Assembly (NCBI GenBank): GCA_035505375.1
Contig: DATJQV010000081.1
Coordinates: 30,596 to 94,595 of the forward strand
Source of the DNA: a bacterium
GTDB taxonomy: Bacteria > Hydrothermota > Tepidihabitantia > Tepidihabitantales > Tepidihabitantaceae
Reading direction: 5' to 3'
DNA length: 64,000 nt
Position 1 is the first letter of the stretch, and the number at the start of each line of letters is the position of its first letter. The notes beneath the pieces are model-generated. The model was not told where the DNA came from and ran no database searches. It saw nothing but the letters and a program-made list of their open reading frames with translations. This document shows, piece by piece, positions 2,128 through 52,112 of the stretch. The translations under genes and the position numbers were made by a program.

Positions 2128-2435
2128 TCGGGGTCGCGACGAAAACCGCGGTCCGAACCGCTCTGCAAATCGCCGTCAGAATCGCCGCGGCAGTCGCGGC
2201 GAGACTCAAACGGCGAATCACCGTGCACTCCGCCACGGAAACCGGGCCGAGAGTCGACTTCCGAGTGCCCTTGCGAGTCGCCATGGAAACCGCCTCCCGA
2301 ACCGCTCCGGGAACGGTTCCCAAGGCGATTCCCGACATGACCTTTTCAGCCGATACCGCGGCTTAACGCATAGTAGATTAACAACTTAGCTACAAATGAG
2401 CGGAAAATGGGTAGCGTCCCTATTTAGAGGACCGA
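2128..2435 (+). repeat. 12-nt phased degenerate array A (19 units, 2133-2360) plus AT-richer flank (2367-2435); inverted homolog of 51636-51995
   Basis: Units in exact register from 2133: gtcgcgacgaaa accgcggtccga accgctctgcaa atcgccgtcaga atcgccgcggca ... Consensus is RYCGCC-NNNN-GA. It is coextensive with a possible ORF 2049-2366 (ATG preceded by AAAGGA) of period-4 sequence x-Ala-x-x. All six frames are largely open here, so coding is unproven. Confidence 0.8.
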
Positions 2436-2443
2436 TTCCGTGG

Positions 2444-2836
2444 TTACGCGGCGGGGTCAGGCTTCGCAGCCGAAGTCTGGAAGGCCACGATGTCGCCGAG
2501 TTGAGTTCTGGTTGACGCGATGACACCGACCGGCAACTCAATCGTCTTTGTCCCGCGCCAGGACCCGGCCATGCCCCACGGCTTCAGGTTGCGACGGAGG
2601 CCGACGACACGATTCTTCTTGTCGAGGAAGACGACGTCTATCGGGAAACGCATGAACCACATATGGATCGACGAGCACGGGTCGATGAGCAAACCAGTAT
2701 CGGGCTTCAATCCGCTGCGTCCGAGCAGGCCCTTGCTGCGTGCCGCGAATGAATTGGCGACCTCCAATTCGGAGGCGATGGCAACACCCTTGGTGACGTT
2801 GATGGCGGCCGTGTTGGGCTTCTGAGGTGCTACCAC
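2444..2836 (-). CDS. DUF192 domain protein
   Basis: ORF track 130 aa. ...ANSFAARSKGLLGRSGLKPDTGLLIDPCSSIHMWFMRFPIDVVFLDKKNRVV fits the DUF192 (COG1430) pattern. Confidence 0.7.
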   Translation of the reverse strand: MVAPQKPNTAAINVTKGVAIASELEVANSFAARSKGLLGRSGLKPDTGLLIDPCSSIHMWFMRFPIDVVFLDKKNRVVGLRRNLKPWGMAGSWRGTKTIELPVGVIASTRTQLGDIVAFQTSAAKPDPAA

Positions 2837-2891
2837 AGGTTAGTCAGGATAGCCGCGACACCGGCCGTGTCAAAAGAGAAAGACGGATAGT

Positions 2892-2917
2892 CCAGAATTC
2901 AGAGACCAGAATCCAGA
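2892..2917 (+). repeat. Dispersed word-repeat family F1 (CCAGAATTCAGARACCAGAAWC), copy 1
   Basis: ccagaattcagagaccagaatccaga. Related copies are at 27251, 28098(-), 29060(-) and 31992(-). Confidence 0.7.
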
Positions 2918-3027
2918 TAGCAGGCAATCAGCAGATTCTGCAGACTCCACAGATTCTGTTCTCTCGACAGGGGAAATTGGGCCATCTGCGTAATCTGCGC
3001 AATCTGCGGATACTTGTTGCCCTGGCG

Positions 3028-5712
3028 TCAATCGAGTTTGACGAGTTTCTTGATGGCCCGGAACTCGCCCGCGGCCATGCGGCAGTAGTAGACACCGCGC
3101 GGTACAGCCACACCCCGGTCGTCGCGGCCATCCCACACCAGGGAATAGGTGCGAGGGACGAGGGACTTGGGTGCGGAGAGGACCCGGACCAGAGCGCCGG
3201 TGGCGGAATAGATGTTGATGCTGGTCTGGGTCGTGCGGGGAATGCTGAAGCGGATAGTCGTCTTGCCGGAGAACGGTGTGGGCTGCGCACGGTCGAGCGC
3301 GAATACTCGCGGCAGCGTACCGCGGTCTTCGATGCCGGGCGGCGTTCGTACTACGACTTTCACCGCCACCGTGTCGTTCGCCGGGAACTGGTCGCCAGTG
3401 AGCTTTGTGAAGCAGCTCAGGTCGAAGGTGTCAATCGTGTCCGCAGTCCAGGTGCCGGTGAACTTGACCGTATCGAGCGCCCCGGCCGCAAGTGTGACCT
3501 GGGCCGAATCGGCGTAGGTCGTCCCGATCTTCATCCTGACGGGGAAGGTCTCCTGGTAGGTGCCGAAGTTGCGGACTACGGCAGTCGGTGTCACGACCGT
3601 GCCTGAATCAACTGTATCGGCAGGCGCGACGACCTTCGTCACTCCGACATCGTGGACGTTGCCCACCGTCACCGCGCCGGTGATGACGACCGCGTACGGC
3701 TGACGTCGCGTCACTACGTTCTGCGCTGCTACGCGCAGCGTCCAAAGACCGGCGGCCGGTTGGTTCACGCGGAACATCTCCTCCGGGTCGAGGTTGTTGT
3801 ACGCACCCGATGGGTTCAGAGTTGACTGGCCGTTGGTATAAAGGTCTCCTTTGTAGAAGCCGGCATTGGGCGCGGTCAGCAGGCAATCGAGGTTGTTGAT
3901 AAGCGCCGGGTTCGCGCCGGCCGCGGCCGCGGTGTCGGTCCAGACCACGCCAACGCGCAGCGGCATGGTCGAATCCACGTGGAAGTCGAAATCCCGATAG
4001 TCGCCCGTCGCAAGCCCGGTCGTATCATCGTAGGCAAGCAGCTTGCGCGTGTCGCCGGTGAAGTACAGCACCGAGTCGAGGTCAATCCGGCCCCAGCCGA
4101 TGTACACACTCGGTACTACGTAGCTCTCTACGTCAGGGTCGGCTGATACGAATATCATCGCCTTGAGCATCGCGCTTGAAACATAGCCCCAGGTGTCGGC
4201 CGGTGTCGCGGTGCCGGACGGGTAGTAGCCCTTGCGCAGGTACGAACGGCACAATCCAATGCAGCCATTCACGCAGGGCGAGGCCATCGAGGTGCCGCTC
4301 ATTTGGGCGTAGCCGCTCTCGGAATTCGCAAAGGCTGAGTAGATGTTCTCGCCGGGCACCGAGATATCCGGCTTGATGCGGCCGTCCGGCGCCGGGCCGT
4401 CCGACGAGTAGCTGGACAGCAGGTTTGCGTTTGTCCCGTTCTGCACCGACGTGGCCGCGATGATGGATTTGGCATTACCGGGCTCGGTAATCGTGTACCG
4501 CTGAGTGTGGTACTGATTGCCGGCCGACTTGATAGTTTGGATGTCCCGGTTCTCCCACGAGAACATGTCGAACGTCGCTGAGGCGGTGGTGTATTGTCCC
4601 AGGTCCCCGGTCCACCACGAATTGCCAATGGTGTGCGGACGTAGTTCCGGGTGGCGCAGGTCGTTCGTGATCTCGTTGAGCGGCACTGTGAAATCGTTAC
4701 CGGGAGGCGACGGGATGGGGCTCAGGACGACGATGCGCGCATCCTTGGCGTGCCCATCATATCGGCCAGAGCCGCCATTGGCGGAGTCATTTCCTGCCAT
4801 GGTTCCAGCGACATGCGTGCCGTGGACTGCTGTGTCCCAGACGAAGCTCGTGTCCGCCGGATAGAGTTTGACCGCTACGACCTTGCGGTGGGTCGGGAAC
4901 TCGCCAGTATCGGTGATCGGAACCGACGCGTCGTAGAAGGCCCAGTGGTTCACGTTGAGGCCCTCGTCACTGTAGCCGAGAATCTCGCCGGCTCCACGGA
5001 CGCCATTGTCCCAGACCTTGCGCACGTTCTTGGTCCAGTCTTGCACAACCCACTGGCACGAGTCGTTCTCCGCCTCGGGCCGGTGCCATTCCTCTATCGA
5101 GAACACCCAAGGCAGGCGAGCGATGGCGGCGAGTTGCTCCCGCGAGCAGTCGACCTCGACCACTTTCATGTTCTTCGAGACGCCTGAGCGCACGAACTTG
5201 AGTCCGAGCGCGGCAAGGTCGCGCTTCGCCGCCTCGATGTCCTCGGGGTAGAACAACACGACGGAGACCCGGCCAAAGCCGGTACTGGCAAGCGTGCGCG
5301 ACCAGAGTTTGTACCCGGGCTGGTACACTCCGACCCAGCGCACGAACGGCAGTGCCGCCACTTTCCCGGCGACGGCGCGGTTCATCTTCACGAATGAGAG
5401 GTAGCGTGAGTGGAAGCCCAGGAACTTGCCGCCGGCGCGTTGCAGTTGGTCTATCTGCATACTGTATACCGGACCTCCAAACTGAACGAGATAGTAGCCG
5501 GTTCCGTCTCCCGGGTACTCGCTCATCTGAAGCGCCGGGGGCAACTCGGGCTGCTCGGTCAGGGGGTCGAACTTGCGGCTGTCCCAGAACCCGACCTTGA
5601 AATCACCCGGGTTGGCCTGCGGCGAGAAGCTGCCGCGGCCCGCGGGGCGGAAAGGGTTTGCCGCGAATGTCGTAGCTGCCAAGATGAGCACTGCGGCCAT
5701 GGTCTTCCTCAT
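3028..5712 (-). CDS. Secreted subtilisin-like S8 peptidase with CARDB-like domain and T9SS/FlgD-like C-terminal sorting domain
   Basis: 894 aa. Signal peptide MRKTMAAVLILAATTFA. Catalytic His HGTHVAGTMAG and Ser SGTSMASPCVNG. C-terminus ...INIYSATGALVRVLS...YSLVWDGRDDRGVAVPRGVYYCRMAAGEFRAIKKLVKLD. Confidence 0.9.
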   Translation of the reverse strand: MRKTMAAVLILAATTFAANPFRPAGRGSFSPQANPGDFKVGFWDSRKFDPLTEQPELPPALQMSEYPGDGTGYYLVQFGGPVYSMQIDQLQRAGGKFLGFHSRYLSFVKMNRAVAGKVAALPFVRWVGVYQPGYKLWSRTLASTGFGRVSVVLFYPEDIEAAKRDLAALGLKFVRSGVSKNMKVVEVDCSREQLAAIARLPWVFSIEEWHRPEAENDSCQWVVQDWTKNVRKVWDNGVRGAGEILGYSDEGLNVNHWAFYDASVPITDTGEFPTHRKVVAVKLYPADTSFVWDTAVHGTHVAGTMAGNDSANGGSGRYDGHAKDARIVVLSPIPSPPGNDFTVPLNEITNDLRHPELRPHTIGNSWWTGDLGQYTTASATFDMFSWENRDIQTIKSAGNQYHTQRYTITEPGNAKSIIAATSVQNGTNANLLSSYSSDGPAPDGRIKPDISVPGENIYSAFANSESGYAQMSGTSMASPCVNGCIGLCRSYLRKGYYPSGTATPADTWGYVSSAMLKAMIFVSADPDVESYVVPSVYIGWGRIDLDSVLYFTGDTRKLLAYDDTTGLATGDYRDFDFHVDSTMPLRVGVVWTDTAAAAGANPALINNLDCLLTAPNAGFYKGDLYTNGQSTLNPSGAYNNLDPEEMFRVNQPAAGLWTLRVAAQNVVTRRQPYAVVITGAVTVGNVHDVGVTKVVAPADTVDSGTVVTPTAVVRNFGTYQETFPVRMKIGTTYADSAQVTLAAGALDTVKFTGTWTADTIDTFDLSCFTKLTGDQFPANDTVAVKVVVRTPPGIEDRGTLPRVFALDRAQPTPFSGKTTIRFSIPRTTQTSINIYSATGALVRVLSAPKSLVPRTYSLVWDGRDDRGVAVPRGVYYCRMAAGEFRAIKKLVKLD

Positions 5713-12247: not shown

Positions 12248-12368
12248 GCAAACCCGAAGCTCGAAACCCGAATGACGATTGAATGTCCGAATGACCAAAT
12301 GACGAAGGTCAGGTCTGACATTCGGGTTTCGGGTTTCAATCGTCATTCGGACTTCGGAATTCGTCATT
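12248..12368. repeat. Long imperfect inverted repeat built from tandem words (GAAACCCGAA / CCGAATGACG) between the uvrC start and the rtcB stop
   Basis: The 16-nt segment ccgaatgacgattgaa (about 12267-12283) is perfectly complementary to ttcaatcgtcattcgg (about 12333-12348). Flanking words repeat in both arms. A separate small palindrome cgcgcc-cta-ggcgcg lies at about 12369-12384. Confidence 0.6.
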
Positions 12369-12386
12369 CCGCGCCCTAGGCGCGGG

Positions 12387-13931
12387 TCATCCTTTGACCA
12401 CACCCAGCGGCTTCATGCGCGCCACCTTGCGGCAGATGCCTGCCCGTGTGCAGACGTCCACGACCCTGTCCACATCCTTGTAGGCGTCCGGCACTTCCTC
12501 ACGCAGCACCTCGCGGCTGGCGGCCATCACCATGATGCCCTTCGCCCTGAGCTCTTCGGCGACGTTGCGACGCTCGGTCTCCTTGAGCGCGCGGGTACGG
12601 GACCATACCCGGCCGGCGCCATGGCAGGCCGAGCCGAATGTGTCGGTCTCGGCTTTCTCGGTGCCCAGCAGCAGGTACGAACATGTACCCATATCCCCGG
12701 GAATCAACACCGGCTGGCCGAGATGGCGGTAGCGCGACGGCAGGGCGTGGCTGCCGGTCTGATTATGGCACTGGGTTCCGGAACCGGGCCTGGCCGGTCC
12801 GAACGCACGCGTGGCTCCCTTGCGGTGAACGCACAACCTGACGCAATCCTTGCCGACCGCGTGGGTCTCGAACTTGGCGATGTTGTGGGCGACGTCGTAG
12901 ACCTGGCCCATGCCCAGTCGCTCGAACGGAAGCCCGAGCACCTGGCCGAACGCCTCGCGTACCCAATGCGCGATCGCCTGTCGGTTCGCCCAGGCGTAGT
13001 TGGCCGCGCAGACCATCGCCCCGAAATAGCGTTTGCCCTCAGGCGACTCGATGGGCGCGCAGGCGAGCTGCCGGTCAACCAGCTCGATGCCGTACTTCTT
13101 CGAAACCGCGCCGAGCGTCTTCACGTTGTCGTCGCATATCTGGTACCCGAGCCCGCGCGAGCCGGTGTGGATCATTACCGTTATCTGGCCTTCGGCAATC
13201 CCGAGGTCTCGCGCTGCGCCGAGGTCGTAGACCTCGGCCACTTCCTGGATTTCGAGGAAATGGTTGCCCGCTCCGAGCGTGCCCAGTTGCGGCATCCCGC
13301 GTTCCAACGCGCGCTCCGACACTCCGGTCAGGTCGGCCCCGGCCATGGCTCCGTGCTCCTCGGTGAACTCGAGGTCCTCCTCCGTGCCGTAGCCCTTTTC
13401 GACCGCCCAGCGGGCACCCCGGGTCAGGACCTGTGCCACCTCGGTCTGCGAGATGCGGATCTTGCCCTTTGACCCGACGCCGGATGGCACGTTTTCGTAC
13501 ATCGCCCGGACCAGCTTCTCAAGTAGTGGACTGGTGCGGGACATGACCGAATCGTCCGACGATTTGGATCGTGTCCCAAGCCCGAGATCCTCTCGCGTCA
13601 GCTTCGTCCGGAGCATCCGCACGCCGCAATTGATGTCATAGCCCACGCCGCCGGGCGAAATGACGCCCTCGCTCGTCTCGAACGCGGCCACACCGCCGAT
13701 GGGAAAACCGTAGCCCCAGTGGATGTCAGGCATCGCCATAGACTGCCCAACGATCCCGGGCAGGGTCGCGACGTTCGCCACCTGCTCCGGCGCCTGGTCC
13801 TGCTTGATGTCCTCGAGCAGAGAGGTATCCGAGTAGATGATGCCGTCCACGCGCATCTTCGGATTGTAGCTCTTCGGAATCCGCAGCCGGGTATCGTCAA
13901 TCCGCTCTAACGGTCCGTTCCAGGTGGGCAT
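12387..13931 (-). CDS. rtcB: RNA-splicing ligase RtcB (3'-phosphate/5'-hydroxy ligase) carrying an in-frame repeat-element insertion
   Basis: ...GYDINCGVRMLRT...VPSGVGSKG...HTGSRGLGYQI...HRKGATRA...GQPVLIPGDMGT...CHGAGR. The start is trimmed to the ATG at 13931 (MPTWNGPLERIDD...). Confidence 0.9.
   Translation of the reverse strand: MPTWNGPLERIDDTRLRIPKSYNPKMRVDGIIYSDTSLLEDIKQDQAPEQVANVATLPGIVGQSMAMPDIHWGYGFPIGGVAAFETSEGVISPGGVGYDINCGVRMLRTKLTREDLGLGTRSKSSDDSVMSRTSPLLEKLVRAMYENVPSGVGSKGKIRISQTEVAQVLTRGARWAVEKGYGTEEDLEFTEEHGAMAGADLTGVSERALERGMPQLGTLGAGNHFLEIQEVAEVYDLGAARDLGIAEGQITVMIHTGSRGLGYQICDDNVKTLGAVSKKYGIELVDRQLACAPIESPEGKRYFGAMVCAANYAWANRQAIAHWVREAFGQVLGLPFERLGMGQVYDVAHNIAKFETHAVGKDCVRLCVHRKGATRAFGPARPGSGTQCHNQTGSHALPSRYRHLGQPVLIPGDMGTCSYLLLGTEKAETDTFGSACHGAGRVWSRTRALKETERRNVAEELRAKGIMVMAASREVLREEVPDAYKDVDRVVDVCTRAGICRKVARMKPLGVVKG
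13536..13586 (+). repeat. GGGACA hairpin element, copy inside the rtcB coding sequence
   Basis: gcgggacatgacc-gaatcgtccgacgattt-ggatcgtgtcccaagcccgag. Same architecture as the copies at 30536-30588 (+) and 19566-19616 (-). Translated in the rtcB frame as ...GLGTRSKSSDDSVMSRT... Confidence 0.75.
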
Positions 13932-14297
13932 GAGAGAGTATAGAGACGAGGGACACCGTGCGCAACCAGCGACCAGTGCCCCCCAGGACAAGACGAAGTC
14001 AGAACCTAGAAGCTAGAGCACAGACCGCGGAATTCCGGAACACTCCAACCCCTGTAATCTCGCTTCCAACTTCTGGCTTCGTTCGACCATAAACGTTCAC
14101 CAGCAAGTCTCCAATCCCGACACCGAAATCCCGAAGGCACGAAAGACCCGTAACAGACGGGTGCAGAACGCCACCAGCCCGTTTCATTCCGTCTTCGTGT
14201 CTTGGTGGCCGTCAATATCGGACTCAGTCCGGTCATCGCTGCTTGACTCAGGTCTGCCGGAGGCTAAGCTCCCTGCCTTACCCAACAGGAGGACTGT

Positions 14298-15765: not shown

Positions 15766-18270
15766 CTACTGGCTCGACATTACCAGTCGCTTGTGGATGC
15801 GGTCGGTCTTGCCTGAGTGCTCATAGTCGAGCACGTACTCGTAGGTGCCCGGCGCGACATGACGGCTATCGTCATTGGTTCCATCCCAAGGTACGATGTG
15901 GACACCGGCGGTCATTGGCACTTGGTCATTGGTCATTAGTCTACGTACTCTCTCCCCGGCACGGGTGTAGATGGTCAGGCTCACCTTGCCGGCTTCGGGC
16001 AGGCCGATGACAAACGAGGTGCTAGTGCTGAATGGATTCGGGAAGTTGTGGATGGAGAAGCCCGGCATTAGGGTCAGGTTCAAGACGGCTGTGTCCGCAA
16101 CCAGCGTGTCATTGCCCAGGCGCCCGGCTATCAGGAACGTCCGTTGAGCAAGCGACGCCGTATCGCCTATCAAACCAGAAGACGCCGTCACATCGAGCGA
16201 GAACCAGCATGACTCGCCTGGGGCGACGTAGCCAAGGTCAGGTATTCCGTCACCATCCGTGTCCGTCAGGTCCTTCGCGCCGGCCGCGTCACGGAGCCAG
16301 ACGTTCCAACCCGCCGACGCGGACGGCCGCGCCACTTCGACAACTCCGCCAGTGTCTCCCTGAACCAGAGCATAGAATCGATAGGTCTTGCCTTGGCCGG
16401 CCTGGAGCTGGTCCGACTGGTCCGGCCCTATCTGCAACGACTGCGGATACGTCTGCACCGAAGAGCTGACCTTGTCGTTGGCACGGTTCACATCACTCGC
16501 CAGCATCGTCGAGCAACTTACCACCCATTGACCCGGCGGCGCTACCCATTCTGAGAACGTCAGGTCCATGGTGGAGTCAGGCGAGAGCGCCTGCGTTACA
16601 GTCACCGTCCTGCTATAGCCCGTACTGATGCGGAACTGCACCCCGAACAATCGCTCCGCAGTGGTTCCGAAGTTCTTGATTCTCACCTTCGGCATCGCGG
16701 TGTCGCCGGCGCGCAACAAGCCAGGCGGCGCGAGAATCGCGACCGCCCCGACATCGTGCCTCGGCGGGCCGTTCACCTGAATCGACTCTCTGAAGGTATC
16801 ATTGGCCGGTTTCTGGTCACCGGCCAGCGACGTGTAACACGTGACCGGGACTGAACCGACCGGACCCGCAGTCCACGCAGGGAACGCCAGTGTTTCCTGC
16901 GGCACCGAGACCAGCGTCTCCTGTACAGTTTGGGAATAACCGGAGCCGATTTCCATCGTCACCGGGAGTGTACCCGAAGTCAGACCGAAGTTGCGGACGA
17001 CAGCACGCGGGACATACGTGCTACCTGAATCGGCGATTCCGGGTGGCGACAGAATGGCTACCGGGCCGACGTCGAGAACGCCGTTGGTCTTGATGAGAAA
17101 GACGTCATCGCTTCCTGCACCGGCCGAGGCGGTGTAGCCCGCGACGACGTAGCCGCCATCGGCGGCCTGCCGGACCGAGTAGCCTTCGTTGTCGCCCCTG
17201 CCGCCATAGGTTCTGGTCCAGAGCGTGTCGCCCTGAGAATCAGTCTTGACGAGATAGACGTCACCGGGTCCTACAAAATACTGGGAGAAGGTCGCGCCGA
17301 CAATAATGTAGCCACCATCGGCAGTCTGCTGGACCGAGGAGCCGTACCCGCCGGGCGCTCTCCCATACACTCTGGTCCAAAGAGTATCGCCCTGAGCATT
17401 GGTCTTGATGAGATAGACATTAGAGTTGGTAGGTGTCCCCGGACCGAAGGAAGAGGTCCCGCCCCCGATGATATAGCCGCCGTCAGTAGTCTGTTGGACT
17501 GAGTTGCCCACGTCATCGCTTGTCCCGCCATAAGTTCTGGTCCAGAGCGTATCGCCTTGGCCGTTGGTCTTGACAAGGTAGACGTCATACCCCCCTGCAC
17601 CAAACGAGCCGGTACTGCCGGCGATGATGAAGCCGCCATCGGCAGTCTGACAAACCGAGTTCCCCACATCGGTGCTGGCCCCGCCCAAAGCTCGGGTCCA
17701 GAGCGTATCGCCTGAGCTATTTGTCTTGATGAGATAGACATTGGCGCTGTTCGGTGTGCCGGGACCGAAGGAGTAGGTGTAGCCTGCAATGACGTAGCCG
17801 CCATCCGAAGTCTGCTCGACGGAGTTGCCCACTTCGTCATCCAGCCTGCCAATAGCTCTAGTCCAGAGTGTGTCGCCATGAGCGTCGGTCTTGATGAGAT
17901 AGACATTGGCGTAGTCGGGCGCGCCCGGGCCAAAAGTGTTGGTGTAGCCCGCGATGATGTAGCCGCCATCCGAAGTCTGCTGGACAGAGTAGCCCTCGTC
18001 ATCGCCTGTCCCGCCATAGGTTCTGGTCCAAAGCGTATCGCCTTGAGCGTTAGTCTTGATGAGATAGACATCATAATTCCCTGCACCAAAGGACGCAGTC
18101 AGCCCCGCAATGATGTAGCCGCCATCCGAAGACTGCTGGACAGACCGGCCCTCGTCGTCATCTGGCCCGCCGTAGGTTCTCGCCCAGTTCGTCTGGGCAG
18201 AGGCAATCGAAGCAAGGCAGCCAGCGGACAGCAAGACGCTGACCACCGGCAAGACGCCGATCCTCATCAC
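15766..18270 (-). CDS. Large secreted repeat protein: about 7 tandem ~50-aa beta-propeller-like units, CARDB-like domains, T9SS/FlgD-like C-terminal domain
   Basis: 834 aa. Signal MMRIGVLPVVSVLLSAGC. Repeats of GDTLWTRTYGG..DD.G.SVQQT.DGGYIIAG.T.SFG.G..DVYLIKTN. C-terminus ...LTIYTRAGERVRRLM...VPWDGTNDDSRHVAPGTYEYVLDY. Confidence 0.8.
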   Translation of the reverse strand: MMRIGVLPVVSVLLSAGCLASIASAQTNWARTYGGPDDDEGRSVQQSSDGGYIIAGLTASFGAGNYDVYLIKTNAQGDTLWTRTYGGTGDDEGYSVQQTSDGGYIIAGYTNTFGPGAPDYANVYLIKTDAHGDTLWTRAIGRLDDEVGNSVEQTSDGGYVIAGYTYSFGPGTPNSANVYLIKTNSSGDTLWTRALGGASTDVGNSVCQTADGGFIIAGSTGSFGAGGYDVYLVKTNGQGDTLWTRTYGGTSDDVGNSVQQTTDGGYIIGGGTSSFGPGTPTNSNVYLIKTNAQGDTLWTRVYGRAPGGYGSSVQQTADGGYIIVGATFSQYFVGPGDVYLVKTDSQGDTLWTRTYGGRGDNEGYSVRQAADGGYVVAGYTASAGAGSDDVFLIKTNGVLDVGPVAILSPPGIADSGSTYVPRAVVRNFGLTSGTLPVTMEIGSGYSQTVQETLVSVPQETLAFPAWTAGPVGSVPVTCYTSLAGDQKPANDTFRESIQVNGPPRHDVGAVAILAPPGLLRAGDTAMPKVRIKNFGTTAERLFGVQFRISTGYSRTVTVTQALSPDSTMDLTFSEWVAPPGQWVVSCSTMLASDVNRANDKVSSSVQTYPQSLQIGPDQSDQLQAGQGKTYRFYALVQGDTGGVVEVARPSASAGWNVWLRDAAGAKDLTDTDGDGIPDLGYVAPGESCWFSLDVTASSGLIGDTASLAQRTFLIAGRLGNDTLVADTAVLNLTLMPGFSIHNFPNPFSTSTSFVIGLPEAGKVSLTIYTRAGERVRRLMTNDQVPMTAGVHIVPWDGTNDDSRHVAPGTYEYVLDYEHSGKTDRIHKRLVMSSQ

Positions 18271-18302: not shown

Positions 18303-18559
18303 ATCGGCGGGTCGGACGGCTGACAGCTAGCGGCTCACGGCCGGAGGCCTTGGCGGGAGCCACATCTGACGTGAGTCAAGGGTCAGAGGCCAAGAGCCAA
18401 GAGGCAGAACGCAGAGGGATGCCGACGAGATCGCAGACCTCAGCCGGGAACTAACCTCGGCGCGGACCCTGTGGGCGGCGTTCACGCTCGCGGTACTGGT
18501 CTGGGGCGGCGCGCAGATTCACAACTCACACTGAAAGACGAGCGCGGAGTGAGCGAAGG

Positions 18560-19501
18560 AGCGCCACAGTAGTCATGGCTTGGCTCCGCTTTAGCGCAAA
18601 ACAGGACTTCAAGGCACGCACGTCTACAGAGCTACTATGCAACACTAACTAGTCAATCTAACTTCAATGATTACGTGTCTTACGTATACAGCCGCAGCTA
18701 TTTCTTCTACCATCACTGGCTTCTACTAGACCGTCTACCAGACCGTCCGGTAGACCGTCTGGTGGACGGTCCAGTAGTGGGTCCAGCGGTCAGACCTGTG
18801 GTTGGTATCGTAAACCATAGTTAGATTCGACCGGTAGTCTAACTATCGGATGGACTGACGGTTGCACTACTGGGTGGTATTCTGAGCGGACTATGGGTTG
18901 GTCTTGTGGATTAACAGGCAGACGGTTTGCCGATTGAACCTGCGTACGGACCTCAGAGCAGTACGGATGACTGTCTGTAGGGCGGTCTAGGAGACTGTGA
19001 GTTAAACGCTATGCCGGACTAGGCCTGGCTAGATGCGTGCGGTCAGGCTTCGGGCTTGGTCAGCGGGGGTGACCAAGCCGGCGAGGTGGCGAACCGTTTG
19101 TCAGACAGCACCGGTATGGCTTGGCGGTGTCTGCGAAGAGGAAGTCGAGAATTCCCCTCGAACTGTGTTCAAGGGAGCGTAGCAGGATGAATCTGAAGGA
19201 GCCATTGTCGGTGCGTCCGGGCGTGCGGCGAGTTGAGCTTTCGGGCGAGCTTGGCAGGGAGCAATGCTCTGAGCAGTTGTTTGAGCGATGCGAGGTCCAC
19301 TGGCGGGAGCATGCGAAGATGCAGGTTGAGGTCGACGTGGAGGTGCAGTTGGGATTCCGGTTGGATGAGCTATGCAGTTAGCCATGGACGATGCCATGGA
19401 AGGAGCGATGCGGCGTGCGATGTGAGGTGCTGTGTTCGCGTCTCTGCCGAGTCTGCGGTTCTGACCTTGGCGCTCTTGGCGGTTGCGACAGCCCGGGTCT
19501 T
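18560..19501 (+). repeat. 12-nt phased degenerate array C (65 units, 18722-19501) preceded by an AT-richer flank (about 18560-18721)
   Basis: Units stay in register with no indel. Early examples: tctactagaccg (18722), tctaccagaccg, tccggtagaccg. Later examples: cgtagcaggatg (19178 = 18722 + 38x12), aatctgaaggag, ..., cgatgtgaggtg (19418). The left half has consensus TC-N8-GG with stops in all frames. The right half has consensus C-N8-GAG/GTG. Confidence 0.85.
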
Positions 19502-19565
19502 GCGGCTCCTAGATTCCGGCCGGAGAATCTGCGTTATCTGCGTAATCTGCGGTTGTGCCTCTCGG

Positions 19566-19616
19566 TCGGGCTTGGGACACGATCCCAATTGCGGACAATT
19601 GGGTCATGTCCCCGCC
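19566..19616 (-). repeat. GGGACA hairpin element, intergenic copy
   Basis: The reverse complement reads gcggggacatgacc-caattgtccgcaattg-ggatcgtgtcccaagcccgacc. Confidence 0.75.
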
Positions 19617-19827
19617 CGGAACCACGGCATGAGCCTGCTTGTGTCTGTCTGTGTTCATCGGTGTTATCAGTAGTTGCTCTGAGAGACCCTTCGACTCCGC
19701 TTCGTTCCACTCAGGGTGACACTTCGTGTCGTCTGCGGCATCCGCGTAATCACCGGGTACTGCCCGGACCGGGACCGGGAGGGCTTGACTTTTGCTCTTG
19801 TCCGAATATCCTACACTGTCTGATTAT

Positions 19828-20460
19828 ATGCACAGAGCACCCGGTTACATTATCTTTGTACTGGTTCTGGCGGGAACAGCCCTCGCTCCACCGGTGCCGA
19901 TTCCCCTGTCTCAGCAGCCCGTGCCGACCGGGACTTCGGCCCGTACCGTGCTGATATTCCTTCCCCAGCAGTTGTTCTCGGGCGAGGAGTTTGAGCCGGC
20001 GCTGGCGCAGCTTACGCGGGCCGGATTGCAGACCCGGATTGCCGCAATGAACACGGGCATAGCTTCGAGCCTGGACCAGGTGCTGGTGAACACCGACATC
20101 ACCCTGCGTGACGCAGGCGTGTCGGATTATGCCGGGCTCGTGCTCGTCGGCGGGTCCGGGGCCGCGCTCTACTGGGACGATTCGCTGGTTCAGGCCAAGT
20201 GCCGCGAGTTCGCGGATAATGGCAAGGTCGTTGCCGCCATCGGCATCGCGCCGGTGACGCTGGCCCGCGCTGGAGTGCTGAAGGGCCACACGGCGGCCGT
20301 GTTTCACGACCGTGACGCCATCAACTGGTTGAAGCAGGGCGGTGCGAGGTTCAGCTTCAAGAACCTGGTGATCGACCGCAATATCATCACCGCGGCCACT
20401 GACGACCAGGCGCGCGCCTTCGGCAAAGCCGTGGCCTCGGCGGTGCTTGAGACCAGGTGA
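19828..20460 (+). CDS. DJ-1/PfpI-fold (class I glutamine amidotransferase-like) protein, apparently lacking the nucleophile Cys; N-terminal signal/anchor
   Basis: ...YAGLVLVGGSGAALYWDD...GKVVAAIGIAPVTLARAGVLKGHTAAVFHD...NIITAATDD. The canonical A-I-C-H/A-G-P elbow reads AIGIAP. The start is set at the ATG at 19828 (MHRAPGYIIFVLVLAGTALA). Confidence 0.7.
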   Translation: MHRAPGYIIFVLVLAGTALAPPVPIPLSQQPVPTGTSARTVLIFLPQQLFSGEEFEPALAQLTRAGLQTRIAAMNTGIASSLDQVLVNTDITLRDAGVSDYAGLVLVGGSGAALYWDDSLVQAKCREFADNGKVVAAIGIAPVTLARAGVLKGHTAAVFHDRDAINWLKQGGARFSFKNLVIDRNIITAATDDQARAFGKAVASAVLETR

Positions 20461-21881: not shown

Positions 21882-22587
21882 GGCAAGTACGAACTCCGAA
21901 CGCCGAACTCCGAAGTCCGGGGCCCCATCTTCGGCGGTTGGCGTTCGGCATTCGCCCTTTCTGATTGTGCTCTCTTCGCCGTCCGGCGCGGGCAAGACGT
22001 CAATCAGCCGCGAGGTGGAACGTCGCGACCCGGACGTCTTCTACTCGGTATCGGCCACGACTCGGCCGAAGCGGGATGGCGAAGTCCACGGCCGCAGCTA
22101 CTTCTTCTATTCGAAGAAGCAGTTCCAGCGGCTGGAAGCGAGAGGTGGCATGATCGAGAGTGCCAGTGTCTACGACCACCGGTATGGCACTCCGAAGGCG
22201 CCGGTCCTGCGCAATTTCCACGAAGGCCGCGACGTGGTTGCCGACCTCGATATCCAGGGGATGCGCTCGTGCCGGAAGGCGCTGCCCGGCATGGTCAGCA
22301 TCTTCATCACTGCTCCCGACTCGGCCGAGCTCGGCCGGCGGCTCCGCAACCGCGGCACCGATTCGACCGAGGCCGTGAAGCGGCGGGAGGCCGACCGCGA
22401 GATGGAGCTGGCCGCAATCCCCGAGTTCGATTATCTGGTGGTCAACGACCGGCTGCAGCAGGCGGTCGACGACGTGATGGCGATTATCCGGGCCGAGAGG
22501 CTGCGGACATCGCGAATGAGTCCGACCGCACCCCAATCCCTAACCCCTAACTCCCAGTCCCTAGATCGAAGGAGGCCACGGAAATGA
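21871..22587 (+). CDS. gmk: Guanylate kinase with repeat-encoded N- and C-terminal extensions
   Basis: ...FLIVLSSPSGAGKTSISREV...YSVSATTRPKRDGEVHGRSYFF.... The ATG at 21871 overlaps the yicC end. The stop overlaps the next ATG (ATGA at 22584-22587). Confidence 0.9.
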   Translation: MSNRASTNSERRTPKSGAPSSAVGVRHSPFLIVLSSPSGAGKTSISREVERRDPDVFYSVSATTRPKRDGEVHGRSYFFYSKKQFQRLEARGGMIESASVYDHRYGTPKAPVLRNFHEGRDVVADLDIQGMRSCRKALPGMVSIFITAPDSAELGRRLRNRGTDSTEAVKRREADREMELAAIPEFDYLVVNDRLQQAVDDVMAIIRAERLRTSRMSPTAPQSLTPNSQSLDRRRPRK

Positions 22588-25594: not shown

Positions 25595-25694
25595 GAACGG
25601 CTAACAGCCTACAGCCAACAGCTAGCAGCTCGGATACGTTTCCCGGTTCCAGGTCTGCAGTTCATCCCTCATCCTTCATCCTTCATCCTTACGC

Positions 25695-27065: not shown

Positions 27066-27250
27066 GCCGCCCAAGCCGGACCACCGGCGCAAGACCAGAC
27101 GAGTGCAGATGCTAGATGCTAGAATGCAGAACACAGAAGTTCGGGGCGCTCAAGCCTCCGCAATCTCGCTTCTCGCTTCTGACTTCGACCATGATTCCTC
27201 GTCCATCTGCGCCGGAATAACCAGTAGCAGCCCGAGAACCGAACGGACAA

Positions 27251-27289
27251 TCCAGAATTCAGAAACCAGAAATCAGAATTCAGAATTCC
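27251..27289 (+). repeat. Word-repeat family F1, copy 2 (upstream of the PIN/TRAM gene)
   Basis: tccagaattcagaaaccagaaatcagaattcagaattcc. Confidence 0.7.
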
Positions 27290-27388
27290 TGAACACTCTA
27301 CCTTCTGTACCCTGCCTTCTGCTTTCTGACTTCGGTCGTACGTTCTCGGGCCATACGCCTCCGGGTACCTGCCCGGGGCGGAGGAGTA

Positions 27389-30475: not shown

Positions 30476-30535
30476 GAAGCGAGATACTACCGAAGAGAAC
30501 TGCGGGCGCAACCGCAGATTACGCAGATGACGCGG

Positions 30536-30588
30536 GCGGGGACATGACCGAATCCGCCGAGGATTCGGATCGTGTCCCAAGCCCGAAC
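30536..30588 (+). repeat. GGGACA hairpin element, copy upstream of the MATE gene
   Basis: gcggggacatgacc-gaatccgccgaggattc-ggatcgtgtcccaagcccgaacgg. Confidence 0.75.
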
Positions 30589-30849
30589 GGAAGGAGACGA
30601 CCGCTGATGTCGCAGATTCAGGATTCGGACAGAGGAGAAATCAGAATCGAGGACGCGGAGGGAACGTTCACAGATTACGCCGATTCCGCCGACTAGAGAC
30701 GCGGACGGCGAGAACCGCAGACGACGCGCAGCGTCGCCCTGAGCGAGTATGACGAGTCGAAGGGTCTCGCCCGGAAAGGACTACCACGGATGTCGCAGGT
30801 TCCTAACCAGAACCCCTGAACCCCAGAACCCGAACGCTGGAGCGCGGGC

Positions 30850-31098
30850 TCAGGACGAACCGAAGAGCCGGAGTTCGAGTTCGCCGCGGTCGATTCCGAG
30901 ATGATGCGCCACGCTTGCCAGGATGTACTCAAGCGTGCCCACGCGAAGCGACTCGTGGGCCGGTATCGTGACGTGGTGCTCGCCACGCTCGTGCGTCGTC
31001 AGGCGCATGTGGCTGCCGACGCAATGCGTCACCTGGTAGCCGAAATGCCCGAGCAGGTGCGCCAGGTGCTGGCCCGAGACATCGCGCGGCAGCTTCAC
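30850..31098 (-). CDS. hicA: HicA-like toxin (YcfA/HicA mRNA interferase fold)
   Basis: From the in-frame GTG at 31098: VKLPRDVSGQHLAHLLGHFGYQVTHCVGSHMRLTTHERGEHHVTIPAHESLRVGTLEYILASVAHHLGI.... This shows the G-S-H motif and size typical of HicA. GTGA overlap with the upstream gene. Confidence 0.65.
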   Translation of the reverse strand: MKLPRDVSGQHLAHLLGHFGYQVTHCVGSHMRLTTHERGEHHVTIPAHESLRVGTLEYILASVAHHLGIDRGELELRLFGSS

Positions 31099-31307
31099 GG
31101 CGTGATTGTCTCTTCGCGCACGACCTGCACGAACCGCAGCTTGATCGCGTCCGGCTTGGCGCACTCCGCGGCGTGGCACACCGCGGCCTCGCGCACGTTG
31201 GTGTAGAGTTCCTCCAGCGTATCGGCTTCGGTCACGATGCACCCGCACGACGACCGGGCAACAAACCCGCCGTCCCGCTCCTCGACCATGAACTCAACCG
31301 TTGCCAT
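31095..31307 (-). CDS. hicB: HicB-like antitoxin (UPF0150 fold)
   Basis: 70 aa. MATVEFMVEERDGGFVARSSCGCIVTEADTLEELYTNVREAAVCH... follows the HicB N-domain pattern (..E.DGG(Y/F)VA......C.T.G.TLEE....(I/V).EA...). TATAAT lies about 35 nt upstream (plus-strand attata at 31344-31349). Confidence 0.6.
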   Translation of the reverse strand: MATVEFMVEERDGGFVARSSCGCIVTEADTLEELYTNVREAAVCHAAECAKPDAIKLRFVQVVREETITP

Positions 31308-31470
31308 TAATCCTGCCTTTCAGGTACTGATGAGGCACATACCATTATACTCGACCACAACAGAGCCCGCCAGATAGGACAACCGCAGATTACGCAGGTC
31401 AGCCGCCACCTGGCGCTCAAGTTCGGACACTGGAAACTGGTAACTGGGAACTGGAAACTCGCAGCCAAAG

Positions 31471-31746
31471 GCTGCGCTGAAAGCTCGTCAGAAAGCTCGT
31501 TTCAGAGTTCGCCTGAAAGTACCTTAGAAAGCTTACTCGAAAGCTCACTTCATAGCATCTTCCATTGCTCAGCTCAAAGCTCGTCACATCGCATCGCGCA
31601 TCGCTCATCTCAAGGCTCAGCGCATTGCTTCTCACATCGCTCGCTGCAAAGCTCCGTCGAAAGCTCGCGTCAGAGTTCTTTTGAAAGCTCGATTCAAAGC
31701 TCATCTCAAAGCTCGTTTCATCGCTTCTTCGAAAGCTCCCCAAGAG
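31471..31746 (-). repeat. 12-nt phased degenerate array D (23 units)
   Basis: A plus-strand unit start (G-C/T-T/A-C/T, mostly GCTC) occurs at every 12th position from 31471: 31483, 31495, ..., 31735. I checked all 23 by hand. Units look like gctcgtcagaaa gctcgtttcaga gttcgcctgaaa .... Plus-strand 31579-31606 is the reverse complement of a 28-nt block matching array C 19403-19430 at 23/28 positions. Confidence 0.85.
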
Positions 31747-31991
31747 GCAAGCCCCCAGGCGACCCCTATATGCGGATTTTCCGCGACACGACAGTATTTA
31801 ACCGACCGAGAGTAATTGAGTTACGCTCGGTTGGCGAGTGTCACTGAACCTCCAGTTCTTTTTGCCGTCTCGGTGAACCCGGAGTCCACTCGTTCATCGT
31901 TCCACGTCTCCGGTTTTGCCTTTTGGCTCTTGGCTTCTGCCTCTTGACCTCGTCCCCGCCGTCGTGTCCTAAGTCCTCCCCGTTCGGGCAT

Positions 31992-32031
31992 TTCTTGTTT
32001 CTGGTCTCTGAATTCTGGTTTCTGAATTATC
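31992..32031 (-). repeat. Word-repeat family F1, copy 5
   Basis: The plus strand reads ttcttgtttctggtctctgaattctggtttctgaattatc. Confidence 0.65.
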
Positions 32032-32063
32032 CGGTCTTCTCTGTCCCCTACACGGCTGGGGGA

Positions 32064-32423
32064 GTTCCTGTCCCCCATCCGGCCCTCGTTCCTGCGGCCG
32101 GCCCAGCCCCGGAAACAGCGGCCGTTCCAGCCGCTGCAACGGCAACCGCTCCGGCCCCATGCTCGGCCCTCGCACCAGCCTCCGGCACTCGAACCCCAAC
32201 AGCGCCTGATCCCGGCACTGCTCCTGCGCCCTGAACCGCACCTGGTCCTCGTATCGCAACGGCTACCGGCCCTGCTGCCGCAACGGCTTTCGTGCCTGTG
32301 CCCGTAACAGCATCTGTTCCCGGCCCCGAAACAGCGTCCGTTCCGGCCCACGTTCCCGCACCCGAAACAGCCGCCGTTCCTGCTTCTGCAACGGTATCCA
32401 GCCCTGCGCCTGCCCCATTATTC
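32064..32423 (-). repeat. 12-nt phased degenerate array E (30 units, partial 24-nt super-period)
   Basis: Plus-strand units in register: gttcctgtcccc (32064) ... gaaacagcggcc (32112) gttccagccgct gcaacggcaacc ... gaaacagccgcc (32364) gttcctgcttct gcaacggtatcc. From gaaacagcggcc (32112) onward, 21 of 26 units start with G. The minus strand is GGA-rich. A purine-rich (minus-strand) flank lies at 32460-32640. Confidence 0.85.
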
Positions 32424-32776
32424 CTGTGCGTCCGCATCCGTGCGTCCGCTTGACTCCGGGCCATGCACGAATAACATCCCTACTGATGCAAGGCCAAATC
32501 CGGCCAAACCCGACGTCTCCGTCGCTGCTCGGAACTTCGTCCTCAGGTCCTGACGTGAATCCTCCATCCTCCGACCTCGGTCTTTCTTCCTCGCCTCACT
32601 CTTCAGTCCTCTTTCCTCAGTCCTTTTCTCGTCCCGCGCCCCGCCGCAAGCGTATTGCCTCGCCTGTCCGCAACCCCGCCCGAAATGAGTGAGGTTTCCC
32701 TGAAATCCCGTGAGCAGTTGTCCCCGGAGACGCGTGGCGCTTGTCGGCCCGTACGTCCTAGCGGGTTTTTAGGTGC

Positions 32777-43573: not shown

Positions 43574-44601
43574 AGACAGCCATCGTCTACTCGGTGCCGC
43601 CCGAAAGGGCGCAGGAAGGGGTCGGCGCGATACTCGAAGCGTCCGAGTACTTCAAGCGTCTGCGGCCCAAGAAGCGGGTCGGCATCAAGGTCCACTTCGG
43701 CGAACACGGCAACCATAACCACCTGCGGCCGGAGTTCGTCCGCGCCGCGGCGGTTGCTGCCAGCTACTACAATCTGCAGCCCGTCGTCATCGAGACCACT
43801 GCCCTGTACCGAGGACGCCGCCAGGAGGCAACCGAGCACCTCAGGCTGGCCCGGGAGCATGGCTTCACGATCAAGAACGTTCTCGCCCCGCTGGAAATCC
43901 TCGACGGCCGGCACGGCGAGAAATCCTACCCGGTCCCGCTCGATTCCGCGCTCGTGCCCGTCGCCCGCCTGGCCCAGGGGCTCCGCCGCATCCGCTACGT
44001 CATCAACCTCGCCCACTTCAAGGGGCACATGGTGGCGGGCTTCGGTGGTGTATTCAAGAACCTCGCCATGGGCCTCGCCGCCAAGGCCGGCAAGCTTGAG
44101 ATGCACTCGCAATCCAAGCCGTGGGTCGATTCGGACCGATGCGTCAGCTGCGGCGACTGCGTCGACTACTGCCCTAGTGACGCCATCAATTACGAACAAT
44201 ACGTGGCCCACGTCGGCCCTAATTGCACCGGCTGCGGTGGCTGCCTCGCCATCTGCAAGCAGAACGCGATCAGGTTCGACTGGGACGCCGGGTCGGAGAT
44301 GGTCCAGCGCAAGATTGTCGAGTACGCCCAGGCAGTGATGCTCGACCGCGAACTCATCCACCTCAACTTCTGCCTGAACATCACCCGCAACTGCGACTGC
44401 AACACTCAGACCGAGAAACCGATAATGCCTGATGTCGGGCTGTTCGGCTCGCTCGACCCGATCGCCTGCGAACAGGCTGCCTGGGACCGAACCGGGCCGA
44501 AGCTCAAGACCATCTACCCCGAACTCCGGCCCGAGCTGCTCCTCGAAACCGCGGAGGCCCGTGGCCTCGGAACCCGCCGCTACCGTCTCGTCGAGCTATG
44601 A
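43564..44601 (+). CDS. DUF362 domain protein with 2x[4Fe-4S] ferredoxin insert
   Basis: 345 aa. ...KRVGIKVHFGEHGN... . CVSCGDCVDYCPSDAI and CTGCGGCLAICKQNAI. Overlaps the upstream gene by 10 nt. Confidence 0.7.
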   Translation: MAVKTAIVYSVPPERAQEGVGAILEASEYFKRLRPKKRVGIKVHFGEHGNHNHLRPEFVRAAAVAASYYNLQPVVIETTALYRGRRQEATEHLRLAREHGFTIKNVLAPLEILDGRHGEKSYPVPLDSALVPVARLAQGLRRIRYVINLAHFKGHMVAGFGGVFKNLAMGLAAKAGKLEMHSQSKPWVDSDRCVSCGDCVDYCPSDAINYEQYVAHVGPNCTGCGGCLAICKQNAIRFDWDAGSEMVQRKIVEYAQAVMLDRELIHLNFCLNITRNCDCNTQTEKPIMPDVGLFGSLDPIACEQAAWDRTGPKLKTIYPELRPELLLETAEARGLGTRRYRLVEL

Positions 44602-48974: not shown

Positions 48975-49195
48975 CCGATACGCAGTTTCAATTGCGCGAC
49001 TTCGTAGCCTTCCAGACCACTGCCGCGAAGCCCGAGTAATCGGGTTCGAGTTCCGCTCCTCGGGTCGTCCGTTCCACTGGGCCCTGCGGCCGTGCATGAG
49101 TCGCGGAAGGCCAGTTATTGACAGCGCCCGAGACGGTGTATAATTGTACGGCTGCTGTCTGCTTCACAGCTCGGGTTTCGCCCAAAGGAGGACCC

Positions 49196-51604: not shown

Positions 51605-51635
51605 CAGACAAGGCTCGAATCGCCGCAGTAGACCC

Positions 51636-52112
51636 TTCTAAATGGGGACGCTACCCATTTTCCGTTCATCTGTAGCTAAGTTATTAAAACACGACGCTTT
51701 AAGCCGCAATATTGGCTGAAAAGATCACGTCGGGAATCGCCCTGGGGACCGTTCCGGGAACGGTTCGGGGGGTGGTTCGGAACGTGACTCTCAAGGGAAC
51801 CTGGATGGCGATTCTCGGCCCGGTTTGCGGGGTCACGTACGCCGCGGTTCGCACTCCGATTCCGGAGCTGATTCTCAGGAGCGGTTCCAGGGCGACCTGA
51901 ACGGTGATTCGCCGTTTGAGTCTCACCGCAACTGCCGCGGCGATTCCGACGGCGGTCTGCGGAGTGGTTTGGACCGCGGTTTCCGTCGCGACTCCCAGCA
52001 TGACTTCAGAGCTCACGAGGCACATTGGTTCTGTCTCCCGCAAGGACACAAAGGGGTCGGGGACGGAAATCGACTCTCTCCGCTCGGTGCGCTTGGTGTC
52101 GTTCTGGTTCAA
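51636..52112 (-). repeat. 12-nt phased degenerate array B (34 units, 51705-52112) with AT-richer flank (51636-51704); inverted homolog of array A
   Basis: Plus-strand units in register from 51705: cgcaatattggc tgaaaagatcac gtcgggaatcgc cctggggaccgt tccgggaacggt .... Clear homology to the reverse complement of 2128-2431 up to about 51995, with an extra 60 nt (5 units). It is coextensive with track ORF 51699..52112(-), which ends at the same TAA as the array-A ORF. Confidence 0.85.

Follow-up and report, generated by a model that had tools for sequence, protein, structure and literature searches.

The 64-kb window analyzed here (the whole stretch of 64,000 nucleotides, positions 30,596 to 94,595 of contig DATJQV010000081.1 in assembly GCA_035505375.1) contains an intergenic region, region C, that is flanked by two divergent transcription units. 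On one side lies the gene of a repeat protein with a type IX secretion system (T9SS) tail, and on the other a plus-strand operon with the gene order DJ-1/PfpI, dtd, yicC, gmk, a 92-aa gene, coaBC, dnaB and radA; homologs of the flanking DJ-1/PfpI protein are annotated as candidate division WOR-3. Between them lies array C, in which two noncoding elements, one with 25 units and the other with 24, stand side by side in tandem. Each element consists of a short non-periodic head followed by some 24 head-to-tail units of 12 nt; within a unit, 5-7 nt form a conserved core and the rest varies freely (Table 1).

The periodicity had been noticed by eye in the letters alone, and the original prediction is right in substance but wrong in extent. 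For 18722-19501 the excess of identity over shuffled sequence corresponds to z = 9.7, 10.5 and 7.7 at lags 12, 24 and 36, as the period-12 claim requires, and lags 3 and 6 are at or below chance (lag-3 z -1.9). A sliding scan of the 64 kb finds period-12/24 sequence at exactly five places, the number of arrays expected, along with many period-7 and some period-9 arrays. The array had also been described as 65 consecutive units without a phase slip, and this did not hold: the signal comes from two arrays, C-left and C-right, split by 144 non-periodic nucleotides (19022-19165, lag-12 z 0.8), and no periodicity is seen 3' of C-right either (19454-19560, z -0.7). Because the unit motifs of the two arrays differ, a common register across the gap is not a meaningful statement. 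The remaining description was borne out: there are zero open reading frames (ORFs) of at least 60 aa in 18330-19101, the segment 5' of the array is AT-richer (GC 0.47 for 18560-18721) and C-left is also lower in GC (0.53) than the surroundings (~0.6), and the column preferences are T/A at position 1, C at 2 and G at 12 in the left half, and C at position 1 and G-(A/T)-G at 10-12 in the right half. That the array is not CRISPR (clustered regularly interspaced short palindromic repeats) holds as well, the whole unit being 12 nt, whereas CRISPR repeats have ~25-36 nt plus unique spacers of similar size.

Table 1. Region C, its flanking genes and the other dodecamer arrays of the window (window coordinates, nt).
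Feature	Coordinates	Strand	Description
Period-12/24 arrays, sliding scan	2041-2400, 18661-19500, 31381-31860, 31981-32520, 51541-52020		
Type-B element A	2130..2428	-	inverted paralog of E, 82-89% identical
T9SS-tailed repeat protein gene	15766-18270	-	promoter TTGACA-17-TAGAAT at 18302-18274
Leader ('head') of C-left	18560..18721	+	AT-richer, non-periodic; GC 0.47, lag-12 z -0.9
Array C-left	18722..19021	+	25 units of 12 nt, consensus T/A-C-y-n-n-n-R-G-n-y-n-G
Linker	19022..19165	+	144 nt, lag-12 z 0.8
Array C-right	19166..19453	+	24 units of 12 nt, core GAGC-r-A/T-T-G read from 19175
9-nt repeat	19526..19551	+	AATCTGCGT x3; segment common to 30505-30617 (reverse complement) and relatives
Dispersed hairpin repeat	19566..19612	+	GGGACAcgatCCCAATTGcggaCAATTGGGtcaTGTCCC; three window copies, 80-92% identity
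Sigma-70-like promoter of DJ-1 operon	19785..19812	+	TTGACT-16-TATCCT, from promoter scan
Type-A array D1, paralog of C-right	31480..31767	-	24 units, GAGCTTT/GAGCGATG read on minus strand
Array with alternating unit flavours	32060..32400	-	~28 units, period 24
Type-B element E	51637..51995	+	head with terminator-like hairpin, then GGGGACCGTTCC GGGAACGGTTCG and ~21 units

Considered separately, the two halves of array C are each strongly periodic, with z = 7.7, 9.4 and 5.9 at lags 12, 24 and 36 for C-left and 8.0, 6.5 and 6.1 for C-right. In C-left, units 1 to 5-6 are near-perfect palindromic copies of the TAGACCGTCTA type and the unit listing shows a gradient of increasing degeneracy toward the 3' end; its unit weight matrix is dyad-symmetric (p = 0.002). 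The array folds better as RNA than shuffled sequence (z -4.5), an effect driven by the left end, where the palindromic first units give an inverted repeat that is 88% complementary. In a second assembly of the same strain, this homogeneous left end is longer by a 12-nt unit, TCTACTAGACCG (L002 1-50 compared with window 18697-18745), a difference that must be read with caution because it sits at a contig end. Contigs L002 and L003 break at the C-left repeat, two of the three other assemblies of the locus begin at the left end of array C, and apart from the one unit at the contig end all three are identical to the window over array C. The extra unit and the contig breaks suggest that the homogeneous end of C-left either varies in copy number or is difficult to assemble.

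C-right is a degenerate member of a second family, type A (GAGCTTTnnnnn). Aligned to the reverse complement of 31480-31767 (D1), it gives diagonals that all have one constant offset modulo 12, at 58-82% identity, and its unit type is common to locus L052 and some 15 type-A loci in metagenome-assembled genomes (MAGs) of WOR-3. The linker is probably the head of C-right: it has GCGGTCAGGC and AATTCyCCC in common with the heads of type-A1 arrays, a likeness seen by eye and without an alignment statistic. The head of C-left aligns weakly with those of other arrays. As RNA, C-right is unstructured on both strands (z +0.8 and +2.3), and its minus strand is C-rich (0.40 C vs 0.19 G).

The best view of what such an array maintains comes from a third family, type B, whose grammar is GGAACCGTTCCC GGAACGGTTCCC followed by rsGGCGAyTyGC units. 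Its start, GGAACCGTTCCC GGRACGGTTCCC, is near-invariant in 13 sequences, and the best-conserved units are the 5' ones. Across the genome collection, 93 stretches match the start motif; almost all lie in eight WOR-3 MAGs that carry at least 5-15 copies each, and nearly all matches have a period-12 array on one side (z 5-10 over 300 nt); the few actinobacterial matches have no array after them, and viral contigs gave no matches to the motif. When 66 oriented copies are stacked they show a head of ~85 nt, three well-conserved start units and ~19 further units, and the information content collapses right past unit 22, i.e., the array has a sharp boundary. Of 41 non-redundant copies, 26 have unit 22 as their last, 10 have unit 23 and 2 have unit 21, while the array stops elsewhere in the other 3. 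Paralogs have a median identity of 43% in register; a shift by multiples of 12 gives 41.5%, and alignment off register 26%: almost no positional homology is left, yet phase and length are kept. Type-B copies are mostly free of any overlapping ORF (70/76). About a third of the type-B elements (loci L058-L150 in the MAGs being the type-B set) lie ~143 nt downstream of paralogous genes for proteins that end with a T9SS C-terminal sorting domain (..VYFVRE..KVVITR), and element E of the window likewise lies behind such a gene, at 49118-51604.

Type A, too, is present in many copies in those MAGs; complete ones have 22-26 units, there are two head subfamilies and the unit order is conserved. At L052 the 7-nt core is near-invariant and the 5-nt remainders are all different. 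Across array types, the alignment of a head motif is convincing within type B only. We conclude that there is an array superfamily, specific to a clade of candidate division WOR-3 and comprising types A, B, C-left and the type found at L005, whose families have in common a 12-nt step and ~21-28 units but differ in core motif. It is a real noncoding feature and one that appears to be previously undescribed: a literature search found, in the library covered, no paper connecting WOR-3 with repeats or noncoding elements, and a search for 12-nt or 12-bp arrays returned only papers on arrays of the TIGR type (tandem interspaced guide RNA), Borgs and heptamer repeats.

The DJ-1 locus itself shows both the persistence and the turnover of these arrays. 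Intergenic sequence of the window is alignable to relatives only over ~55 nt around the DJ-1 promoter (GGCTTGACTT..TCTGAATATCCTAC, window 19776-19830), a region that is 74-100% identical in more than 40 related loci and far above any other intergenic sequence at the locus in conservation. The DJ-1 start codon lies within ~15 nt of it, which suggests a very short leader. Among the 31 related DJ-1 loci that extend far enough upstream, ~20 have their top autocorrelation at lag 12, 24 or 36 (z >4.5). Conservation in position, unit number and phase had been named as a check on the original prediction; position holds at these loci, unit number and phase are kept within type B, and the type of array at the locus is what differs. 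Many relatives have type B upstream of DJ-1, L052 has type A with GAGCTTTnnnnn (lag-12 z 12.9; best lag 36, z 13.4), and L005 and L392 have a third array type, nnnCCnGTTGC. Specifically, of the nearest relatives of the window species, at 78-80% DJ-1 identity, L391 carries type B and L392 the L005 type. Gene callers have placed short 'genes' on either strand of such arrays in other assemblies, differently in different relatives.

Constraint can be measured directly where type-B arrays are orthologous. A MAFFT alignment of 11 such loci has 1 indel event in 294 array columns, compared with ~24 in 295 columns of adjacent spacer; the sole array event is a 1-nt insertion in L008, and the unit number is identical at all 11 loci. 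Indels between homologs had been predicted to come in multiples of 12, and apart from that single nucleotide the in-array indels are indeed 12, 60 and 72 nt: element E is colinear with the type-B array of relatives without one 12-nt unit, and element A is without 72 nt relative to its orthologs and differs from E by a 60-nt (5-unit) indel. Identity within the array exceeds that of the spacer in every one of the 24 most similar pairs listed (for example 0.92 vs 0.84, 0.85 vs 0.66 and 0.80 vs 0.44). Per unit position, conservation ranges from 0.76 to 0.95 with its top at the core G and no codon pattern. Within type B, selection thus keeps register, unit number and core.

The selected feature is the motif in register, not base pairing, structure or reading frame. 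No reading frame is open throughout 8 orthologous type-B arrays, and cross-species conservation by mod-3 class is 0.82, 0.81 and 0.86. Within array C, two ORFs have no Pfam match and none has one above threshold, ORF 19233-19673 giving only a sub-threshold match to Cupin_6 (E 0.0048, 17.1 bits vs a cut-off of 26.7). A protein-coding tandem-repeat gene was rejected on both ORF conservation and period 3. RNA structure fares no better: for 13 type-B sequences the RNAalifold covariation term is +0.42, i.e., no covariation support, with the invariant start palindrome as the only solid helix. Pairing within units or between neighbouring units, assessed by shuffling over 41 copies x 18 units, has z of -0.1 to -1.0, and the folding of type B is indistinguishable from that of dinucleotide shuffles, with a mean z of -0.66 for one strand and -0.23 for the other. 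The window has no Rfam match at the gathering score and only chance-level miRNA matches at E <= 1 and E <= 0.1, and no tRNAs were found. A structured noncoding RNA, tried as a candidate, was rejected for lack of both an Rfam match and compensatory base pairs.

The original prediction had offered, as one of two readings, a transcribed scaffold presenting a protein-binding motif every 12 nt. The scaffold part agrees with the general reading favoured here, given the conserved core with variable spacer, the locked phase, the fixed unit number and the lack of covariation; the transcribed RNA is unsupported in type B. With scans that use a crude consensus, none of the 66 type-B copies has a TTGAC[AT]-N15-18-TAnnnT site leading from the head into the array, and terminators do not cluster at a fixed position or at the array end; such promoters and terminators as do occur around these copies are those of neighbouring genes. 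Orientation is near-random: 38/61 copies are co-oriented with the upstream gene (38:23) and 29/68 with the downstream gene (29:39). As the start units are, in addition, palindromic in types B and C-left, we lean slightly toward DNA rather than RNA as the substrate, although a read-through or unconventional transcript over the arrays is possible.

On the best available reading, the arrays are candidate phase-locked, fixed-length docking platforms for a cooperatively binding, oligomerizing protein, to which we give about an even chance. Each unit would dock one subunit (or dimer) of a sequence-specific protein, which would polymerize head-to-tail with a 12-nt (or 12-bp) step, starting at the best-conserved 5' units, and the outcome would be a nucleoprotein assembly of defined size, with ~22-25 subunits. 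If the substrate is duplex DNA, the complex could be architectural, insulating or segrosome-like and lie next to promoters and the ends of genes, and by our own calculation an untwisting of ~4 degrees per bp would bring sites spaced by 12 bp to the same face of the helix; if it is RNA, the array would be a scaffold.

The closest models are the centromere arrays of plasmids and prophages (TubR-tubC, ParR-parC and the omega heptads), which like the arrays here are contiguous, phased, short direct repeats with a conserved core, adjacent to promoters and arranged in blocks. Their unit lengths are 12 bp for tubC, 11 bp for parC and 7 bp for omega. They are bound cooperatively to give a ring or helical nucleoprotein complex of defined size, which in our case is only predicted. 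TubR, for example, binds direct-repeat blocks of tubC beside a promoter, forms double rings ~21 nm across and untwists the DNA by ~6-7 degrees per bp (PMC6009700). The differences are also plain: centromere arrays have 4-20 units, occur once per replicon and lie directly upstream of their own partition genes, whereas the WOR-3 arrays have ~22-25 units, occur dozens of times per chromosome in several motif families and have no adjacent cognate or partition gene.

Several observations weigh against docking platforms at array C. No gene for a cognate binding protein lies next to the arrays, whose neighbours are diverse, unrelated genes. The unit matrices of B, C-right and D1 have no significant dyad symmetry, so that the usual hallmark of dimeric DNA binders is missing from the array bodies; dyad symmetry, significant only for C-left, was accordingly dropped as an argument for a dimeric binder there. 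Type-B arrays have a median identity of 0.73, compared with 0.66 at fourfold-degenerate sites and 0.78 over the whole coding sequence of the neighbouring gene; divergence is thus little better than at fourfold-degenerate sites, and the sequence constraint is modest. Moreover, the evidence for constraint comes from type B, and partly type A, and extends to array C through the likeness in architecture, which leaves room for C to be a decaying copy. Orthologs of C-left and C-right are found in their own strain only (a scan with the C-left pattern gave, among the matches listed, only scattered single matches in unrelated taxa), and C-right is much more degenerate than its relatives, so array C could be an ageing pair of elements. 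Finally, the array type at the DJ-1 locus varies among close relatives (L391 has B, L392 and L005 have the L005 type, L052 has A and the window has C-left plus A), a turnover that also fits replacement by mobile DNA. The recent duplication that links A and E, which are inverted copies, 82-89% identical, with discrete ends, fits some form of mobility as well.

If docking platforms of fixed size are nonetheless what these arrays are, they would amount to a new bacterial nucleoprotein organization in an uncultivated phylum, and would imply a protein whose step is 12 nt and whose core motif is programmable. More tentatively, and with more doubt than confidence, we would extend this to a prediction for the whole class: an undescribed WOR-3 chromosomal element, present in several families and dozens of copies per genome, whose phase-locked ~22-25-unit dodecamer arrays nucleate closed or capped assemblies with a fixed number of subunits. 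The builder would be a sequence-specific polymerizing protein or a family of paralogs, and its product a sequence-encoded 'chromatin bead' or RNA scaffold system unparalleled in studied bacteria.

A possible but unlikely alternative is that the arrays are transcribed and act as RNA, either as a multivalent protein sponge or scaffold of the CsrB kind or as a 3'-untranslated-region element. They do offer ~22-25 evenly spaced copies of a short motif in ~270-300 nt, the motifs would be accessible since C-right and type B are no more structured than shuffles, the elements are strand-asymmetric with a head at one end and direct rather than inverted repeats, and there is the mild excess of co-orientation with the upstream gene (38 vs 23). 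The sponge RNAs CsrB and RsmZ likewise have ~20 short protein-binding motifs in a few hundred nt (~18-22 sites in CsrB). However, their motifs lie in hairpin loops with irregular spacing, and they have their own promoter and terminator and exist in one to few copies; the WOR-3 arrays are spaced at exactly 12 nt, lack structure and have neither a promoter nor a terminator at a fixed place, and a sponge RNA with dozens of genomic copies would be unusual. The near-random orientation, the lack of inward promoter-like sites and array-end terminators in the 66 type-B copies (with the crude consensus scans), the lack of covariation and the failure to match Rfam beyond chance level even at E <= 1 also speak against it.

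It is rather improbable that the arrays are selfish, non-autonomous mobile DNA, similar to miniature inverted-repeat transposable elements (MITEs) or repetitive extragenic palindromic (REP) sequences, in which the internal 12-nt repeat is incidental. Uniform length would then reflect descent from a master copy, and the DJ-1 upstream region would be a permissive insertion site. Like REP/BIME (bacterial interspersed mosaic elements), ERIC (enterobacterial repetitive intergenic consensus) and MITE sequences, the families are multi-copy, intergenic and of defined length, and they lie in any orientation; the turnover at the DJ-1 locus, the A/E duplicates and the fixed ~143-nt distance of about a third of type-B copies behind the paralogous T9SS genes would also be explained. 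On the other hand, the copies of a REP or MITE element resemble each other in sequence and either are palindromic or end in terminal inverted repeats, while the WOR-3 copies have only unit grammar, register and length in common: unlike neutral copies, most paralogs have lost positional homology (43% vs 41.5%) and have kept register and unit number. Indels are suppressed ~24-fold relative to flanks that are also less conserved than the arrays, the ends of A and E show, by eye, no terminal inverted repeats or target duplications, and there are zero matches in viral contigs. Mobility would in any case be compatible with a binding function.

Neutral, decaying minisatellites that arose by replication slippage, with the period kept because later slippage occurs in unit multiples only, are a distinctly unlikely explanation. 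The head-to-tail units with whole-unit indels, the gradient from near-perfect to degenerate units in C-left, the 12-nt difference in copy number at its homogeneous end, the substitution rate near the synonymous rate and the many other short-period (7 and 9 nt) arrays in the intergenic DNA of this genome are as expected for such repeats. But minisatellites, or variable-number tandem repeats, should vary in copy number between strains and species, and type B does not, the 12-nt C-left difference being the sole variation; the unit number is instead fixed across species and paralogs, with a sharp boundary. Furthermore, the spacers within units vary around a conserved core, indels are rarer and conservation is stronger than in the adjacent spacer DNA, and units that are ~40% identical are poor substrates for slippage. 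Borg tandem repeats, which are perfect copies, also differ from the WOR-3 arrays, whose copies have only grammar, register and length in common. Borg repeats are pervasive in an uncultivated lineage and are described as recently formed and rapidly evolving (PMC9879509).

We consider it very improbable that the array is either a guide-RNA array of the TIGR or CRISPR kind or a loading zone for Rho, with a YC dinucleotide every 12 nt. Rho covers ~12-13 nt per monomer, and the C-rich minus strand of C-right is unusually unstructured (z +2.3), but the sign of the C/G skew is opposite in different arrays, the conserved core is far more specific than YC, and Rho would have no need of a fixed 22 units. 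The layout of repeat plus variable spacer recalls TIGR arrays, which are also short conserved repeats with short variable segments from uncultivated lineages. A TIGR unit, however, has ~36 nt, composed of two alternating 8-12-nt repeats with 9-nt spacers, the arrays have 5-15 units, and an adjacent Tas (Nop-domain) gene and a terminal terminator are present (PMC12045711). Array C has a single 5-7-nt core per 12-nt unit, its 5-nt 'spacers' are of a kind conserved between species, and it is flanked by unrelated genes, those of the T9SS-tailed repeat protein and DJ-1/PfpI; no defining TIGR feature is present. Last, the other reading of the original prediction, a decayed or frameshifted gene for a protein with tetrapeptide repeats, is effectively refuted: the period is a multiple of 3 and there is a 98-aa minus-strand ORF at 19101-19397, but there is no lag-3, lag-6 or period-3 signal, no Pfam match at threshold, no shared open frame and no codon-position pattern, and the 'genes' called in relatives fall on different strands.

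Whatever their function, the arrays matter for annotation, because they break assemblies and are repeatedly mis-called as genes on either strand, and they offer a clear case from nature in which selection acts on register and unit count instead of sequence.

The other arrays of the window have 24, ~28, ~21 and ~16-19 units. D1 matches L211 unit by unit, and the region around it is colinear with region C: the reverse complement of 30533-31950 and region C have further segments in common, mostly in the same order. Elements A and E lie 49 kb apart, and both begin with the terminator-like hairpin AAATrGGGACGCTACCCATTTT. Downstream of C-right, the 9-nt repeat is part of a sequence, AATCTGCGT..TGTGTTCATCAGTGG, that L033 and L030 have at the equivalent place, and the segment ~19536-19618 is found again, inverted, at 30533-30617; period-9 repeats also occur at 2761-3120. 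The 47-nt hairpin repeat (GGGACA..CCCAATTG-cgga-CAATTGGG..TGTCCC) is present at 13538-13585, 19566-19612 and 30539-30586, one of these copies lying within a predicted gene.

Short periods are widespread in this genome. The coding density of the window is only ~82%, and in a crude census (180-nt windows with a short-lag autocorrelation z of at least 4.5) ~26% of intergenic nucleotides fall in periodic windows, mostly of period 12/24 and 7, vs ~7% of coding nucleotides. Most of the periodic signal within genes comes from in-frame protein repeats, i.e., ordinary coding repeats: 165-nt repeats at 17370-18071 in the T9SS-tailed protein, which has 834 aa, 102-nt repeats at 36398-37506 in ORF 35337-37664, which we take to be probably TPR-like, and 126-nt repeats at 49484-51213 in a YNCE-like beta-propeller protein.

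Degenerate period-7 arrays occupy many short intergenic gaps (1404-1544, 12250-12370, 13861-14100, 21888-21960, 25596-25690, 27107-27335, 31425-31459 and 44629-44706). Several are hairpins with complementary heptamer arms, such as CCGAACn x4 ... nGTTCGG x4 at 21888-21960, and in relatives heptamer runs often come directly after type-A dodecamer arrays. Their closest parallel is the short tandemly repeated repetitive (STRR) heptamers of cyanobacteria and Beggiatoaceae (TAACTGA), which are intergenic, lineage-specific, abundant and proposed to bind a regulator (PMC4679880). The dodecamers are of a different kind: STRR-type repeats are near-perfect copies of a single heptamer, 2-43 in number and mostly just 5' of start codons (PMC4679880), whereas the WOR-3 dodecamers are degenerate, have a fixed unit number and follow heads. 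In one case a heptamer array has been drawn into a gene model: the predicted N-terminus (44598-44720) of the ScpA-like ORF 44598-45419 is a TCGACAA heptamer array, and the true start is probably near 44715, just 5' of the conserved LDLFEGP motif.

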